Assembly: GCA_051747585.1 (NCBI GenBank)
Contig: JBNJGH010000009.1
Location: 1 to 52,163, forward strand
DNA from: Candidatus Rifleibacteriota bacterium
Lineage (GTDB): Bacteria; Muiribacteriota; Ozemobacteria; Ozemobacterales; Ozemobacteraceae
Direction of reading: 5' to 3'
DNA length: 52,163 bases
The notes beneath the pieces are model-generated. The model was not told where the DNA came from. It did no database searches and saw only the letters and a program-made list of their open reading frames with translations. Position 1 is the first letter of the stretch; each line of letters begins with the position of its first letter. A program made the translations under genes and the position numbers. Below, piece by piece: positions 25,188 to 52,163 of this stretch.

Positions 25188-25204
25188 ACCGCCGCCGGGC
25201 AGTC

Positions 25205-25503
25205 AGCAATTCTCGGTCAGCGACCATCAACTCGTTTAAGAAAAAGAACATTTCTCACACTAAGCCTCAAAGCCACAAAGAAAATAACCACAGAGTTCAC
25301 AGAGCAGCACAGAGAATCTTTTTCAGCCTTGTTCCCGGCATAAACAAGCTCTAAGAAAAGCACCAGTGTTTTTCTTAGAGCTTGCTTATGCCGGGAAAGC
25401 CGGCGACAAAAAGTCGCTGGCTGATTGTCCCCCGGACAATCCACGGCTGAAAAAGATAAAAAAATCCACTCGGTGGCCTCGGTGATCTCGGTGGTTTAAA
25501 TTC
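25205..25503. repeat. Structured non-coding repeat (MITE/REPIN-like), copy 1
   Basis: Leader, (CACAGAG)x3 arm, 13-bp IR at 25316-25328 and 25445-25457, hairpins at 25332-25397, 25398-25422 and 25423-25441, then (CTCGGTG)x3 arm. Homologous to 47734-48030 and 50961-51212. Confidence 0.93.
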
Positions 25504-25622
25504 TATATTTGACAGAAAGAAATAAGAACAAAACTGGTTTGGGACCCATCCGATAAAGCCTGGCTGAAAATTGCTGAACCGCAGCCAGGGAAGAAGGTAC
25601 ATCAAGTTAGATCATAAAATTA

Positions 25623-45676: not shown

Positions 45677-47656
45677 TTACCCTCCTTGCAGGTTCTGCAA
45701 ATCATTTTCAGCTTCTGAAAGCTCAATATGCAGACTTTCCCAAACCTGCATTTCGTTTTCAAGATTCTGATTAATCGACGCATGTTTGTTTGACACATCT
45801 GCTATTTTGCTGCTGTCAAATTCTAACGGCGGCTGTGCAAGCAATTCTTCTATTTCTGCCAAAGCAAGCTCGATGTTAGAGATCTCTTTTTCGCTTTTAT
45901 CAATGCTTTTTTTCAAGCGCTGAATTTTATTGCTGAGTTGTTTTCTGTTCTTATTTCTTTCGCGTGCGAGCTGTTTTTTATCTGAAATTACCGGTTCGTT
46001 TTCAGTAATTTCCCGGCATTCATCCTCTGTATTACGGAACTTTTCTGCCCATAGATAATGGCTGTAATTTCCTTCATAAATATGTGCTGAGCCCTTTTTA
46101 AGAGCAAGAACCCTTGTTGCCAGGCAATCGAGAAAAAAACGGTCATGTGATACTAAAATAATCGTTCCGGGAAAATTATCAAGTGCTTCGAGAAGGGCTT
46201 CGCGACTGTTTATGTCAAGATGGTTGGTTGGCTCATCCAACAGCAACAAGTTGCAGGGGCGCAGCATCATTCTGGCAAGACCCAGGCGGCTTTTCTCGCC
46301 TCCGGATAAAACCTGAACCTTCTTTTTTACATCATCACCGGAAAAAAGAAAGGCACCAAGAAGTTTGCGAAGATTGGGAACTGCATCAAGGGGAGTTTCG
46401 CGCAACATTCTATCCCATATTGTTTCTTCGCCTTCAAAACTTATTTCTTCGTCCTGGGCAAAATATCCGGCATGAACCTTGTATCCCCATTCAAGTTTCC
46501 CGTCCCATTGCATGTCTTCTCCAGCAATTATACGCATAAGAGTTGTTTTTCCGGTACCGTTTTCTCCGACTATTGCCAGTCTGTCACCACGATGAATATT
46601 GAAACCCACATCGTTCAATACTTTATTGTCACCATAGCTGCGACTTAGATTCTCGGCTTTCAAAACAATTTCTCCGCTGCTTTCGCACTCCGGGAAACTG
46701 AAGCTGAGTGAAGGGTCCGAGTCGACCTGTTGTATTTCTTCGATCTTTTCGAGTTGCTTGATTCGGCTTTGTACCTGTGAAGCCTTGCTTGCTTTATATC
46801 TGAATCTTTCTATAAAGCGTTCGACTCTTTTTCGTTCCCGATCCTGACGATCCTGGGCTGCTTTAGCTTCTGTTGCCCAGGTTTCTCTGGCTTCGAGAAA
46901 GTTCGTATAATTCCCTCTGAAAACCTTTGCCCCTTCCGGCATTAAGGCAACAACCGAATTGGCCAGCTTATCAAGAAAGTAGCGATCATGAGAAACAACC
47001 AGAATTCCGCCTTCGTAACCGGCCAGATATTCTTCAAGAAAAGAAATTGAAGCAATATCAAGGTAGTTGGTGGGTTCGTCGAGAAGCAGGTAATCAGGCT
47101 CAGATAACAGCAGCCGGGCAAAATAAGCTCTCATCTGCCAACCACCCGAAAAGTTGCTTAGTGGCTCATGAAAACGCTCTTCAGGAAAGCCGAATCCTTT
47201 AAGCAGACGGTTGGTTCGAGCCTGCCAGGTATAGCCGCCCGCATGCTCAAAAAGTATCAGCATGCGGTCATATTCATCTTGCAGAGCTGCAGAAATTTTG
47301 CCCGATGCCATTTGAGTTTCAATCTCGCTCAATTTTTCCTTGATTTGGTCAAGACGCTTAAAAGCCTGGGTTGCCAGGTCCCAGAGGGTGAGTTCATTTT
47401 TTTCTTTTTGCCAGTTCATGTCTTCCTGAAGAAAAATCTCCTGGGGAAGGTAGCCAATACGACAATCCCTGGGGCTGGTTACCTGGCCTTCGTCGGCTGC
47501 TTCCCGCCCCAGAATAATATTCATCATTGTCGTTTTTCCCGAGCCGTTACTGCCCACCAGAGCAACTCTATCGCCGGGATTTACGGCAAAACTCACATTG
47601 CTGAAGAGTTGCCTGACATTAAAAGATTTAGCTAAATTTTGAATTTGCAGTGACAT
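45677..47656 (-). CDS. ABC-F family ATP-binding protein
   Basis: Two ABC domains (GSNGSGKTT/FSGGW/LLLDEPTN and GENGTGKTT/LSGGE/LLLDEPTN), inter-ABC linker, C-terminal coiled coil, no TM; ATG 47656. Confidence 0.95.
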   Translation of the reverse strand: MSLQIQNLAKSFNVRQLFSNVSFAVNPGDRVALVGSNGSGKTTMMNIILGREAADEGQVTSPRDCRIGYLPQEIFLQEDMNWQKEKNELTLWDLATQAFKRLDQIKEKLSEIETQMASGKISAALQDEYDRMLILFEHAGGYTWQARTNRLLKGFGFPEERFHEPLSNFSGGWQMRAYFARLLLSEPDYLLLDEPTNYLDIASISFLEEYLAGYEGGILVVSHDRYFLDKLANSVVALMPEGAKVFRGNYTNFLEARETWATEAKAAQDRQDRERKRVERFIERFRYKASKASQVQSRIKQLEKIEEIQQVDSDPSLSFSFPECESSGEIVLKAENLSRSYGDNKVLNDVGFNIHRGDRLAIVGENGTGKTTLMRIIAGEDMQWDGKLEWGYKVHAGYFAQDEEISFEGEETIWDRMLRETPLDAVPNLRKLLGAFLFSGDDVKKKVQVLSGGEKSRLGLARMMLRPCNLLLLDEPTNHLDINSREALLEALDNFPGTIILVSHDRFFLDCLATRVLALKKGSAHIYEGNYSHYLWAEKFRNTEDECREITENEPVISDKKQLARERNKNRKQLSNKIQRLKKSIDKSEKEISNIELALAEIEELLAQPPLEFDSSKIADVSNKHASINQNLENEMQVWESLHIELSEAENDLQNLQGG

Positions 47657-47733
47657 TAATTTTTTCCCCGGAAAACGCAGTAGCAGTATTCTATCAGAAC
47701 TCCGTGGTCCTTTCAAACGAACCCTTGTCGAAT

Positions 47734-48030
47734 AGCAATTCTCGGTCAGCCACTATCAACATGTTTCAAAAAAGAATATGCCTCACACTAAGCCGCAAAG
47801 CCACAAAGAAACTAACCACAGAGCGCACAGAGAACACAGAGAATCTTTTTCAGCCATTGTTTTCTTCTTCAGCAAGCCTTCAGAAAAGCACTCGTGTTTT
47901 TCTGAAGGCTTGCTGAAGAAGAAAAAGCCGGGCGGTGAAACCGCCGGCTATTTGTCTACAGGACAAATCCTGGCTGAAAAAGATTAAAAAATTAACTCCG
48001 TGCCCTCGGTGGCCTCAGTGGTTTAAATTC
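47734..48030. repeat. Structured non-coding repeat, copy 2
   Basis: 13-bp IR at 47843-47855 and 47972-47984; hairpins at 47860-47925, 47926-47949 and 47950-47968; same core orientation as copy 1. Confidence 0.93.
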
Positions 48031-48172
48031 TTTATTTGCCCTAAATAAATAAAACCAGAACTTTTTGTAATCAGCTAATAATAGTTGCCAGAGAATTCCT
48101 GGATCATTTCTCAGTTGTTATGTCATTATATTTTGATCAAGCTCGTAATCGTCATCGTTGTCGTAATAGCTG

Positions 48173-48242
48173 TCGATTCCGATACCCGATACCGACCCCG
48201 ATACCCGAAAAGAATCTCACACCGAGCCGCAAAGCCGCCAGG
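48173..48242 (+). repeat. 70-bp direct repeat, copy A (3' side of the Fic gene)
   Basis: TCGATTCCGATACCCGATACCGACCCCGATACCCGAAAAGAATCTCACACCGAGCCGCAAAGCCGCCAGG; 69/70 identical to 49606-49675. Confidence 0.95.
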
Positions 48243-48263
48243 ATCGCAAAGGCTGAAAAAGAT

Positions 48264-49445
48264 TTACTGAGTTTTCGGCAATTCAGTTCCTTCGCTCATG
48301 ATTTCAATATAGCCGGCGTAACTGAAAAATCGGTTTCGTTTGCGCGCCGTCAGTTCTCTAATGATCCCCAAATCTTGTAGATGCCTCAGAGATTTGTTAA
48401 CTGTGGCTGGGCTGATGCCTGTCTTTTCCACTAACCATCCTGAGTTGGTGATTGGGTGCTCCATCATTGCTCGATGAACCTGCAGAGTAGATGATGCTGC
48501 CCGACCAAGATCTTCAATCTTACCCTGATCTCTTTTCGCTAGTTTCAGTAATCGCTGTGCTGTTTCAAAAGCCTGAGTAGCGGTAAAGATAACTGCTTCG
48601 GCAAAAAAGTCTAACCAGGCCTCCCAATCGCCTGTAAGGCGAACGTTATTGAGCAGCTCATAGTAATATTGCCGATGGGTTTTGAAGTATAGGCTGAGAT
48701 ATAGCATCGGCTCACGCAATACATTTTGCTCACACAAAAGCAATGTTATAAGTAATCTGCCAAGGCGACCATTGCCATCAAGAAATGGGTGGATTGTTTC
48801 AAATTGTACGTGGGCCAGCGCTGCTTTAAGCAACAAAGGGGTTGTTTCTGGTTGGTCATGCAAAAAAAGCTCTAATTTATCGAGACAATCCATCATTTCT
48901 TCAGCAGGTGGTGGCGCGAATGCTGCGTTTCCTGGTCGAGTTCCGCCGATCCAGTTCTGGCTCGTTCTGAATTCTCCAGGTGTGTGCTTACTTCCCCGGC
49001 CCTTGTAGAGTAATACCCCATGGATTTCACGAAACAACCTCAGCGAGATTGGTAGACCGGAGTTTAACAAATCTAATCCATGGTTGAGAGCGGCAACATA
49101 GTTGCTCACTTCGCGAACGTCATCCAGTGGCACCCCGGGCTCCTTGTCCAATTCGAAAAGCAGAAGGTCTGTCAGTGATGATTGAGTTCCTTCTATCATT
49201 GAAGAGAGAACGGCTTCTTTGCGGACATACATGTAAAGAAACAGTGAAGTATCTGGTAACAAAGTTGAGACACTGTCCAATTTTCCCAGCGCCAGCATTG
49301 CCTGATCAAATTTTTGCTGCAGTTCTGCCTTCCAGACAATTGCAGGTTTTGGTGGCAGAGGAGCAGGCACAAAAGCTTGCGCTTTTTCACCTACCGTAGA
49401 TATGGTTACATATTTTCCCTGAAGCTTTCGTTTCATTTGAGCCAC
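48264..49445 (-). CDS. Fic family protein (N-terminal inhibitory motif, C-terminal winged HTH)
   Basis: HPFLDGNGRLGR active site, SSMIEGT inhibitory motif, C-terminal GISPATVNKSLRHLQDLGII. Start GTG 49445 or ATG 49436. Confidence 0.95.
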   Translation of the reverse strand: MAQMKRKLQGKYVTISTVGEKAQAFVPAPLPPKPAIVWKAELQQKFDQAMLALGKLDSVSTLLPDTSLFLYMYVRKEAVLSSMIEGTQSSLTDLLLFELDKEPGVPLDDVREVSNYVAALNHGLDLLNSGLPISLRLFREIHGVLLYKGRGSKHTPGEFRTSQNWIGGTRPGNAAFAPPPAEEMMDCLDKLELFLHDQPETTPLLLKAALAHVQFETIHPFLDGNGRLGRLLITLLLCEQNVLREPMLYLSLYFKTHRQYYYELLNNVRLTGDWEAWLDFFAEAVIFTATQAFETAQRLLKLAKRDQGKIEDLGRAASSTLQVHRAMMEHPITNSGWLVEKTGISPATVNKSLRHLQDLGIIRELTARKRNRFFSYAGYIEIMSEGTELPKTQ

Positions 49446-49453
49446 CTTAAACC

Positions 49454-49478
49454 TAAAATAAGACTCGCCGTTATTTTA
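49454..49478. promoter_or_regulatory. Operator-like inverted repeat upstream of the Fic gene
   Basis: TAAAATAA-N9-TTATTTTA directly upstream of the start codon. Confidence 0.4.
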
Positions 49479-49605
49479 ACTTAACAATATATCCTAAATT
49501 AACCTGTCGAGATTTAAAAAGCAATAAATTCCGGGGGATTCTATGGCGTCCCTCTCTTCCTGGTCAATCTCGTCCTCCTAATCGTAGTCGTTGTCGTCAT
49601 CGTAA

Positions 49606-49675
49606 TCGATTCCGATACCCGATACCGACCCCGATACCCGAAAAGAATCTCACACCGAGCCGTAAAGCCGCCAGG
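49606..49675 (+). repeat. 70-bp direct repeat, copy B (5' side of the Fic gene)
   Basis: One mismatch to 48173-48242; continues into CACAAAGAAAATAACAACAGAG, a degenerate left arm of the structured repeat. Confidence 0.95.
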
Positions 49676-49708
49676 CGCACAAAGAAAATAACAACAGAGA
49701 ACCAAAGA

Positions 49709-49994
49709 ACACCGATTTCACTTGAGGAAGTTTTCGGAGAATAATGAGCCTCATTCCATTTATAAACCACAATTTGCTAAGGATGTTAAAGCATACGCTA
49801 CATTGAAAAAGCAGATTGAAAAGAAGGAAAAATTTAACCCCATAATTCAAAGTGCGCGAAAAAAATCCACCCTCATAAGCCTTGCCGGAAAACTTGGCAT
49901 TTCCCCCGGAATTGTTGCCGGCAGATACCAGCACATAACCCAGAATTACAAACTCTTCAACAATCTAAAAACAAAATTCACCTGGGAAAAATAA
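49709..49994 (+). pseudogene. Mosaic of toxin-antitoxin gene remnants (antitoxin C-terminus, frameshifted RelE-like N-terminus, HigA/ImmA-like C-terminus)
   Basis: TPISLEEVFGE* with TAATG overlap; MSLIP/YKPQFAKDVKAY split by a frameshift; LAGKLGISPGIVAGRYQH...LKTKFTW at the end. Confidence 0.55.
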
Positions 49995-50272
49995 AGATAA
50001 TTTCGTGCTCATCTTATTTGCCCGGATAAAATGTAATAAACCCAGATAATTGAATAAGGTGTCTCTTGATTCACAACTTAGTATCATTCTAAGGCGTTCC
50101 TTGAATGAATGTGTGAGAAAAGTTTCTAATATTTATTCATTTGACCAGTCAGATATTCCTGGATTACACTTGTATTGCTGGAGAAATCCAGGCTATTTCT
50201 CTATATCTCGCTAATATAACGACGAATCAACAGAAAGGTAGCCCCGAACATTTGAAGAAAAGTTGCGATATC

Positions 50273-50842
50273 ATGAAAAATTGTCTTTTGTATTGTTTCG
50301 TCCTGACGCTTGTTTTCTCTCTCATCGGAAGCGCCGCTTCAGCACGAAAAAGAGCCGGAGTCCAATTTGAAGACTCCATTTCCATAGAGGGGACCGAACT
50401 CACCCTTAATGGGTTAGCCGTTCGTTCAAAGCGGGTTTTGTTCTTCAACTACGGAATCTACGTTGCCGGTCTCTATCTGGAAAACAAATCCCAGGACGGA
50501 GAGGCCATCCTGGCAAGCGACACGGCCCGTCACCTGGTTACGCATTTTCTCCACTCGAGAGTCAGCCGCAAACAACTGACCGATGTCTGGAAGGAGAGTT
50601 TTAAAAGGCATAAATACCAGGGGAAAAAGGTCGATCAATTCATTGCTTTTCATCCCAGAGACCTGAGAAAGGGAGAAAAAATGATCTTCACCTACCTTCC
50701 GGGCAAAGGAACCAAAGTGACGATGAAAGGCAAAGTCTGTGGAACAATCCCCGGAAAAGACTTTGCCGACGCCCTCTTCTCCATTTACATCTCCAAAAAT
50801 GCGGGCTTACGCAGAATCAGGGACGGACTCCTCGGAAAGTAA
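50273..50842 (+). CDS. Secreted chalcone-isomerase-like protein
   Basis: Signal peptide, AGVQFED, LTLNG...R, YVAGLYL, Y.PGKGT.V and DFADALFSIY...LLG. Confidence 0.88.
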   Translation: MKNCLLYCFVLTLVFSLIGSAASARKRAGVQFEDSISIEGTELTLNGLAVRSKRVLFFNYGIYVAGLYLENKSQDGEAILASDTARHLVTHFLHSRVSRKQLTDVWKESFKRHKYQGKKVDQFIAFHPRDLRKGEKMIFTYLPGKGTKVTMKGKVCGTIPGKDFADALFSIYISKNAGLRRIRDGLLGK

Positions 50843-50960
50843 ACGAAATTTAATATGTAAGAAAAAAATGGCTTTTTTAGATATAAACGATTAAGTGAAA
50901 AAAAGAAATATCATTATATAAAGAGGTTCTATAAAAGCTTTACCCAGTCTATGTTTTCGG

Positions 50961-51212
50961 TTCTCACTCAGAAGCTCAAAATCACAAAGAAATTAACCAC
51001 AGAGAGCACAGAGATTCACCGAGAAATCTTTTTCAGCCGTGGATTGTCCGAAGGACAATCAGCCGGCGGTTTCACCGCCCGGCTTTCACCGCAACAGCCC
51101 GCCCTCAGAAAAACACCAGTGCTTTTCTGAGGGCGGGCTGTTGCGGTGAGCACTGGCTGAAAAAGATTTAAAAATCAGCTCCGTGGACTCGGCGAGCTCT
51201 GTGGTGAAATTT
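50961..51212. repeat. Structured non-coding repeat, copy 3 (core inverted)
   Basis: 13-bp IR at 51026-51038 and 51155-51167; hairpins in reverse order at 51042-51060, 51061-51084 and 51085-51150; flanks oriented as in copies 1 and 2. Confidence 0.93.
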
Positions 51213-51298
51213 CATTAATTTACAGAGAGAAATATAGCATAAATTTTGGAAACCGGCTGGTAAAGCTTTGTTAAGCAATGTGGGGCATTGCCGGGATG

Positions 51299-52163
51299 TT
51301 ATCGTTGTTTGTCTTTTATCTCAAAAATGGCGTAGGCGGAGTTTTTGACTACAGGCTTGTAGTTTTTGAATAGAAACCTGCCGAGTTTGGGGAATTCCAT
51401 GCTGGTATCAGGCCCGGTTACCCTTGATTTTAAAAAGACATAAATGAAGAAGCGGGGTGGGGCTTTTTTTAATTTGGTGATAAAGTCATGGCGCAGATTT
51501 TTTATAAACGGGTGCGAAATATGATGATAAAAATGATAGTCGTAAAGGTATCTGGTTGCAGAAACTGCTTTGGCTTGCAGCATTCCGTGAATTGCACCGT
51601 TTACCCAGTCCAGAGCCTGGACTTTATCGCCCTGTTTCAGATTCTTTTGCAAAAACTCAGCGATCTGGTCGGGTACACCATTTAAAGGCTGTGGAATCTT
51701 TTTGTTATTTAACTGGTGAATGAACTCCTGCGAAAGCCCCACCTGAAACGGTATAACGAGAAGAAACAGGATTGTGGCAAACATTTTTACCCTGCCCGTT
51801 AAAGCAGAAGAAGGGTTTAAAAGAAAAGAGGCCAGAATTATTACCATAAACTGAAATGGAAGCCAGTGGTAATACCAGAATTGCCCCGAAATAGCCGGGT
51901 AGAACCAAAAAGCGACCGTTGCCGCTGAAGTTGAAACTATAAGCCTTCTTTTTAATGGAAAGTCTGTATTTTTGTTTAAATAGATTGCGATAAGGCCGGC
52001 AAGTAGAAAAAGCAGATAGTCATTGAAAATAAACATTCCCTTAATTGCATAAAAAAACTTCTCGGGCCAGGGAATAAGCTGAAAATCATGTCCCAGCTGG
52101 GTATGTAAAGGCAGATAGTTGAAGAAAATCTTTAAAAATGAATTTAAACCGCCTGAATTCCAT
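51299..52163 (-). CDS. Polytopic membrane protein, probable GT-C (ArnT/PMT-like) glycosyltransferase C-terminal part (5'-truncated by window edge)
   Basis: Frame stays open to the window end. TM helices with FWYYHWLP, then a soluble tail (IAEFLQKNLKQGDKV...PPRFF...NY) typical of GT-C proteins. Confidence 0.65.
   Translation of the reverse strand, partial: WNSGGLNSFLKIFFNYLPLHTQLGHDFQLIPWPEKFFYAIKGMFIFNDYLLFLLAGLIAIYLNKNTDFPLKRRLIVSTSAATVAFWFYPAISGQFWYYHWLPFQFMVIILASFLLNPSSALTGRVKMFATILFLLVIPFQVGLSQEFIHQLNNKKIPQPLNGVPDQIAEFLQKNLKQGDKVQALDWVNGAIHGMLQAKAVSATRYLYDYHFYHHISHPFIKNLRHDFITKLKKAPPRFFIYVFLKSRVTGPDTSMEFPKLGRFLFKNYKPVVKNSAYAIFEIKDKQR

Follow-up and report, generated by a model that had tools for sequence, protein, structure and literature searches.

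The window analysed here, that is, the whole stretch of 52,163 nucleotides, carries three copies of a repeat in which a hairpin-rich core lies between arms of CACAGAG-type 9-mers. Copy 1 is a MITE shell on the + strand (25204-25576) with a forward core at 25316-25457, and copy 2 is a 369-bp MITE shell, also on the + strand (47733-48101), which has both terminal repeats, belongs to a young subfamily and contains a forward core at 47843-47984; the short ORFs across these two copies have no Pfam match. In copy 3, the 142-bp core (51026-51167, - strand, based on alignment, inverted-repeat match and folding) is inverted relative to its flanks and is predicted to form a single-strand four-way junction. 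It is bounded by a left 13-bp inverted repeat (IR) at 51026-51038 (+), whose pairing in copy 3 continues outward for a total of 15 bp, and by a right 13-bp IR at 51155-51167 (-), the exact reverse complement of the left one. Three 9-mer units of the CACAGAG type form the left arm (50996-51024, +) ahead of the core, which is followed by an A-rich 11-nt spacer that marks flank polarity (51168-51178, +) and by a right arm of three 9-mer units (51179-51205, -). The surrounding MITE shell has decayed: its leader remnant (50960-50995, +) has no terminal repeat remaining and its tail (51206-51282, +) differs by ~40% from a young copy, against a shuffled baseline of 60%, the limits of both parts being approximate.

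The inverted core of copy 3 and its locus

Copies 1 and 2 align over their full length with the reverse-complemented copy 3 core (86% mean column identity), and the flanks of all three copies align in one shared orientation. Both alignments therefore agree with the sequence-only reading that the core was reversed between its 13-bp IRs while the flanks were not, and direct comparison bears out that 51061-51084 is the exact reverse complement of the copy 2 segment 47926-47949. On the + strand, the hairpins of copy 3 follow in the order stem 3 (19 nt, 51042-51060, from folding), stem 2 (24 nt, 51061-51084), which is bulged and GC-rich with T residues next to it on the + strand in this orientation, and a long hairpin (51086-51149), whose arms are variable yet matched and whose tip is conserved with one mismatch. 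The reversed hairpin order proposed earlier thus stands, whereas the long hairpin of copy 3 measures 64 nt rather than 66 nt, the latter being the length in copy 2. All five strands folded gave z-scores of -14 to -17 against 200 shuffles, and in each the predicted fold is a closing stem with three abutting hairpins, i.e., a four-way junction. An Rfam search over positions 47000-52163 returned 18 matches, mostly generic miRNA hairpins and none at gathering score.

Four public sequencing runs were compared as contigs only. A contig of run X1 (97-99% identical) joins 50998 to 51222, and the inner 223 bp of copy 3 (50999-51221) are missing from that strain; the loss takes the arms too, and an 8-bp direct repeat lies at its edges (50999-51006 and 51222-51229), as in other microhomology or slippage deletions in the genome. 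With the unit absent from X1 and the locus uncovered by the other three runs, no flipped allele of copy 3 was seen. At 49668, 1.35 kb upstream of copy 3, X1 shows an inverted-type junction that is connected to 1.4 kb of unique flank, and forward-type junctions were found in independent assemblies of X1, X3 and X5. One X2 contig of uncertain organism remains an empty-site-like loose end, as its leader arm runs into right-arm-like sequence without a core. The gene to the left of copy 3 has orthologues in three same-genus genomes, where its neighbours are different, so that these three genomes provide no ancestral site.

Two copies of a 110-bp tandem-hexamer/heptamer repeat (48142-48262 and 49575-49684) bracket a Fic-domain gene (48264-49445) in a cassette-like arrangement, and in X1 a core element directly follows the second copy. 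A short ORF at 49722-49994 has no Pfam match and by eye resembles the C-terminal portion of an HTH protein of the antitoxin type; judging by X1 contigs, a longer form of it may exist upstream.

Orientation, age and structure of the cores

The genome assembly (4.14 Mb in 330 contigs, 93.55% complete and broken at repeats) was searched for full cores, defined by the tip motif and two IRs with no more than two mismatches each, and core polarity was assigned from the asymmetric gap between core and arms (~1 nt on the leader side versus 10-12 nt on the other). The resulting tally of orientation over all copies, which the sequence-only reading had called for, is 66 forward and 38 inverted among 104 full cores. 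The polarity rule re-oriented two copies, and the orientation of two double-hairpin mosaics joined at stem 2 (C92 and C52_1328) is arbitrary; microhomology deletions also occur. When every IR beside an arm is counted, truncated copies included, the junctions on the two sides number 76 and 72 for the forward type and 41 and 45 for the inverted type. At C3:55814 and C52:1328 the A-rich spacer stands on the leader-like side, which suggests that inversion also happens, rarely, at a third level, that of the 9-mer arms. There is also a subfamily (C13:14049, C18:5003, C78:11854 and C126:9135) in which an A-rich tract replaces the long hairpin and left IR while stems 2 and 3 and the right IR are retained.

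The further copies have diverged from the young core, the larger the inverted share (3/30, 2/12, 2/8 and 31/54), the youngest copies being 90% forward (27 versus 3). A tree of 94 of the 104 copies (10 were dropped for short flanks, and the tip and right arm were masked) requires 21 orientation changes, with a bootstrap range of 20-22 that had not settled, compared to 28.4 when labels are shuffled. The starred branches of this tree force at least eight changes, or seven on a safer count, since one forced pair shares intron sequence. Taken together, the age gradient and the tree indicate that core flips are recurrent, slow and partly inherited, although the gradient may not be a clean clock because old copies could descend from different masters. 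No core homologue was detected in 86 other genomes of the phylum (best nine candidates scored per genome), and exact core patterns had no match in the genome_contigs, metagenome_contigs and viral_contigs collections. No RNA data set was listed as containing it, which has no bearing on its expression. So far the element is known from a single species-level lineage, and its reach is limited accordingly. At least 45 IR-plus-tip matches in the contig collections were rejected as chance, there being no hairpin among those listed.

Flips of the long hairpin are not tied to those of the core. Tip states across the 104 cores (F and I for forward and inverted cores) were F/GT 34, F/AC 18, I/GT 16, I/AC 15 and symmetric or other 21, so that all four core/tip isomers are present and tip state is independent of core orientation (Fisher p=0.25). 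The tip had been read correctly for copy 3 itself, but for this reason it is no marker of core orientation. Pairing is perfect in 80 of the 104 long hairpins, yet among the 68 distinct arms the mean difference is 9.7 of 27 bases. By eye, approximately 2 of the 104 cores have a flipped stem 2 and a few have a flipped stem 3, the spacers of these stems being 3-5 nt.

In 18 old copies that have a shell, the IR is 98-99% conserved, compared to 83-88% in the shell interior and 72% in the long arm, and the IR remains near intact while shells decay; in an IR-independent collection anchored on stems 2 and 3, the stem-3-side IR was exact in 95 of 113 copies. Compensated changes on both sides of the IR were found in C115 and C52_21128. 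Matched IRs are commoner in inverted copies (32/38) than in forward ones (37/66; p=0.005, the copies not being independent). The 9-mer arms show no covariation (1.26 versus 1.48 when shuffled, 42 old copies), indicating that exchange is confined to the 13-15-bp stem. The tip is ~85% conserved compared to 67% for the arms and resembles the IR, TTTTTCWG being common to both as read by eye.

MITE shells and movement of the cores

The cores are nested between CACAGAG arms of three units each, and in many copies a ~369-bp shell that has terminal repeats encloses both core and arms. Both shell ends are present in 46 of the 104 cores, and neither is recognisable in 26. Among 44 paired shell ends, most of which are 355-390 bp apart, the flanking 9-mers match at 9/9 positions in 17 pairs and at 8/9 in eight more. 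The 369-bp shell thus has the terminal inverted repeats, target duplication, non-coding nature and many dispersed copies of a MITE. These 9-bp duplications make the shell the demonstrated target-duplicating unit, in a decayed example of which copy 3 lies, and the young burst moved as whole shells with such duplications. A shell end was found in 26 of 50 same-family genomes, and in two relatives (L055 and L052) it precedes a DDE transposase with the automatic name ISNCY, one end being seen; the nearest DDE transposase homologue in the own assembly is 22% identical. It appears that the shell was spread in trans by an ISNCY-like DDE transposase. Some shells hold other REP-like cargo or almost none (C203:1377-1731, C248:1388-1744, C7:4172-4581 and C11:42995-43149) and shells in relatives contain different palindromes, which implies that the shell is a general carrier. 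In addition, C307:1100-2630 encodes a 511-aa distant DDE transposase homologue with a 308-aa ORF ahead of it.

Young cores are found in old shells. Flanks could be scored in 53 old copies, several of which have cores 1-4% apart in shells 30-60% apart (shuffled baseline 60%). Pairs of opposite orientation with cores 2-4% apart occur in diverged shells (C162 forward and C222 inverted, C41 forward and C69 inverted), and C14_15910 has no shell and a core close to that of C54. The presence of near-identical cores in decayed or absent shells, sometimes reversed, indicates that cores are also copied between sites, which would be explicable by ectopic conversion or by a cassette-moving enzyme. Near-identical arms can hold long hairpins 45-55% apart. 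Core and flank divergence correlate over 46 copies (r=0.65) and hardly at all among old copies (~0); the power of this congruence test is low, as the left and right flanks of old copies themselves correlate at 0.12-0.13, and it was not used either way. The earlier suggestion of a 142-bp MITE entering CACAGAG-type repeats in either orientation is therefore partly upheld, in that near-identical cores of both orientations lie in unrelated or decayed flanks. However, the demonstrated duplications belong to the ~369-bp shell, which that reading had overlooked, no cognate enzyme was found among the families searched, and the search for flank pairs lacking the core found no precise one in the genome. 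Three relatives (L004, L007 and L077) have CACAGAG arm pairs without this core. The AT dinucleotide at the core ends could be a 2-bp target duplication.

Explanations for the flips and relation to known systems

The sequence-only reading had offered an invertible switch as one interpretation of the core. An invertase-driven phase-variation switch would toggle a terminator (stem 2 with its T-tract) or another signal for neighbour genes, and the 13-15-bp IRs do fall within the 10-40 nt given for invertons in the accessible text of PMC11892184; inversion of Correia elements is also reported, as cited in PMC10969869. Stem 2 of copy 2 has a terminator-like score, with its T-tract on the - strand, and in 11 of 12 young copies located in tandem genes the T-tract is on the strand that agrees with the direction of transcription, based on crude ORF calls. 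However, this match reflects the placement of a forward-master shell upstream of genes, and in old copies in tandem gene contexts the figure is 13 of 23 (p=0.68, same crude calls). Cores 2 and 3 contain no promoter-like site, and the young copies, at 27 forward to 3 inverted, flip too slowly for phase variation; moreover, a related strain has lost the copy 3 unit. No serine recombinase (PF00239) matched in the 93.55% complete assembly, and the two tyrosine recombinase (PF00589) matches are both XerC/D-like by size and neighbours and far from the named copies. There is thus neither a dedicated invertase in the assembly nor a gene-tied directional signal, and we regard a switch as very improbable. 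Even less credit can be given to the view that assembly or library preparation produced the inverted copies artificially at palindromes. Contig ends do often fall within the element and near-identical young copies could be assembler mosaics, but the core of copy 3 differs by 13% from the copy closest to it, junctions of either type are plentiful on each side, and the independently assembled X1 run has an inverted-type junction with unique flank.

A more serious alternative is that the core is a non-autonomous cassette in its own right, on which an enzyme outside the assembly (HUH/RAYT-like or a folded-ssDNA recombinase) acts by reading the IR, tip and short stems and by inserting or replacing the core in CACAGAG arms either way, possibly at the terminal AT. 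The IR, far more conserved than the shell interior and not decaying alongside it, the IR-like conserved tip, young cores in old or absent shells, the cores with neither shell end, and the core-less arm pairs of relatives would all fit such a cassette, as would the absence of the copy 3 unit from X1 with a similar inverted unit upstream and the core-less X2 contig. Set against these are the lack of precise empty arm pairs in the genome, the X1 loss, which includes the arms and uses a direct repeat like other slippage deletions, the movement of the young burst as whole shells, and the independent hairpin flips, which would require a second process. Nor did a candidate enzyme emerge: the single Y1 gene, cut by a contig end, has a different, TIRYT-like repeat on its one visible side; the IR is absent from IS110 and from two elements that we take to be IS1380-like and IS1182-like; neither the IS630 family nor PDDEXK_3 (GxxExxY) had a match in the genome; and a Y2_Tnp search found nothing, in any control either. 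The earlier proposal to find a recombinase or transposase with matching ends thus drew a blank among the families searched, although an enzyme may be missing from an assembly that is incomplete and broken at repeats. Because the IR is so strongly conserved, the short stems rarely flip and the tip contains a portion of the IR motif, a dedicated enzyme is retained as a possible, if lesser, explanation. If an enzyme is responsible, this would be an undescribed route for mobilising structured single-stranded DNA cassettes. A fuller version, which we find rather unlikely, would make the core a new kind of miniature mobile cassette: a 142-nt four-way junction whose two IRs and two tip half-sites are read by a putative sequence-specific enzyme, with either-way homing or replacement in CACAGAG repeats, flip-flop regeneration of the long arms, and hitch-hiking in an ISNCY-type shell.

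On balance, we consider it somewhat probable that host replication or repair, and not a regulated invertase, slowly flips the core in situ and copies it from site to site, the core being the hairpin-rich middle of a nested mobile repeat without coding capacity. Template switching or conversion at the 13-15-bp IRs would be the route of both flips and copying. On a single-stranded template, the core would fold into its four-way junction, whose closing stem would halt the fork. The nascent strand end would next pair with the opposite IR or with that of a different copy, so that a flip or a core swap results, and either orientation is possible as the two IRs are identical. In favour of this reading are the rise of the inverted share with divergence, the recurrent changes in the tree, the four core/tip isomers, the matched long arms, the compensated IR changes, the more frequent matching of IRs in inverted copies, the double-hairpin mosaics and microhomology deletions, the similar cores in diverged shells, and the presence of an SbcD gene in the genome. 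For an exchange between loci far from each other, 13-15 bp is a short length. Unbiased arm copying alone fails to predict the conservation of the IR, although refreshing by core conversion might, and it also counts against passive flipping that stems 2 and 3 rarely flip with their tiny spacers while the 116-bp core reaches ~50%. In the accessible text of PMC8604942, homogenisation of arms together with spacer inversion is a reported signature of template switching, and yeast inversions have spacers of 2-5 bp with short ones favoured, which again speaks against passive flipping of 116 bp; hairpin stalling on the lagging-strand template is described in the part of PMC7999016 available. If flipping is passive, the family would be a natural experiment: nested flips at arms of 32, 14, 11 and 8 bp would be preserved in ~100 paralogous copies, and a 116-bp spacer would be shown to flip when self-folded. 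It would also be a caution that IR-based screens will report MITE interiors as invertons.

The element behaves rather like a template-switch inversion inside a MITE. With the former, as reported in PMC8604942, it shares matched arms, reversible loop flips and a preference for perfect IRs, but the reported cases concern yeast coding DNA with very short spacers, whereas here three hairpins bridge 116 bp at ~100 paralogous sites. Prokaryotic MITEs such as the Neisseria Correia elements, as far as the accessible text of PMC10969869 describes them, are likewise non-coding, ~100-400 bp long and equipped with terminal inverted repeats, target duplications and cognate IS ends, lie upstream of genes and reportedly invert in place; unlike them, an internal cassette flips here while the shell stays put, a second flip is nested within it, the flipped part has no promoter-like site and cores move between shells. 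REPINs with RAYT/TnpA-REP, in the portions of PMC3116915 and PMC6006769 consulted, have in common with the core the conserved inverted ends, a variable pairing interior, extragenic location and excision-like population losses, but form one hairpin instead of a four-way fold; no RAYT gene stands adjacent with these repeats, and the nesting is in a DDE-type shell. Invertons (Hin, FimB/E and Bacteroides types) share the short-IR segment found both ways, according to the same partial text of PMC11892184, in contrast to which there is no nearby invertase or promoter-like site here, ~100 paralogous copies approach 1:1 slowly, and both orientations are known across paralogous copies and not at one locus. 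In the literature searched, with most subscription journals outside its scope, an internally invertible bacterial MITE core was not described. The core may also resemble the flip/flop termini of AAV and the sites of serine invertases. One paper reportedly deals with small repeats of cyanobacteria that lie in heptamer arrays.

Several other elements were noted in the genome. A single-copy IS110 recombinase (C72:100-1350, L155) is inserted in an abundant REP family, and by eye segments of its 5' non-coding region match that REP and its own ends in a bridge-RNA-like manner. A stand-alone 289-aa reverse transcriptase (C43:23098-23673, L104), retron-like by size, lies amid housekeeping genes. Two copies apparently have a group II intron inserted in their right CACAGAG arm, with 5' ends at C35:30399 and C323:2540, 3' ends at C136:7-95 and C142:7788-7876 (Rfam RF00029 above cut-off) and an unassembled middle; both ends are flanked by arm sequence, and the intron may target the folded element.
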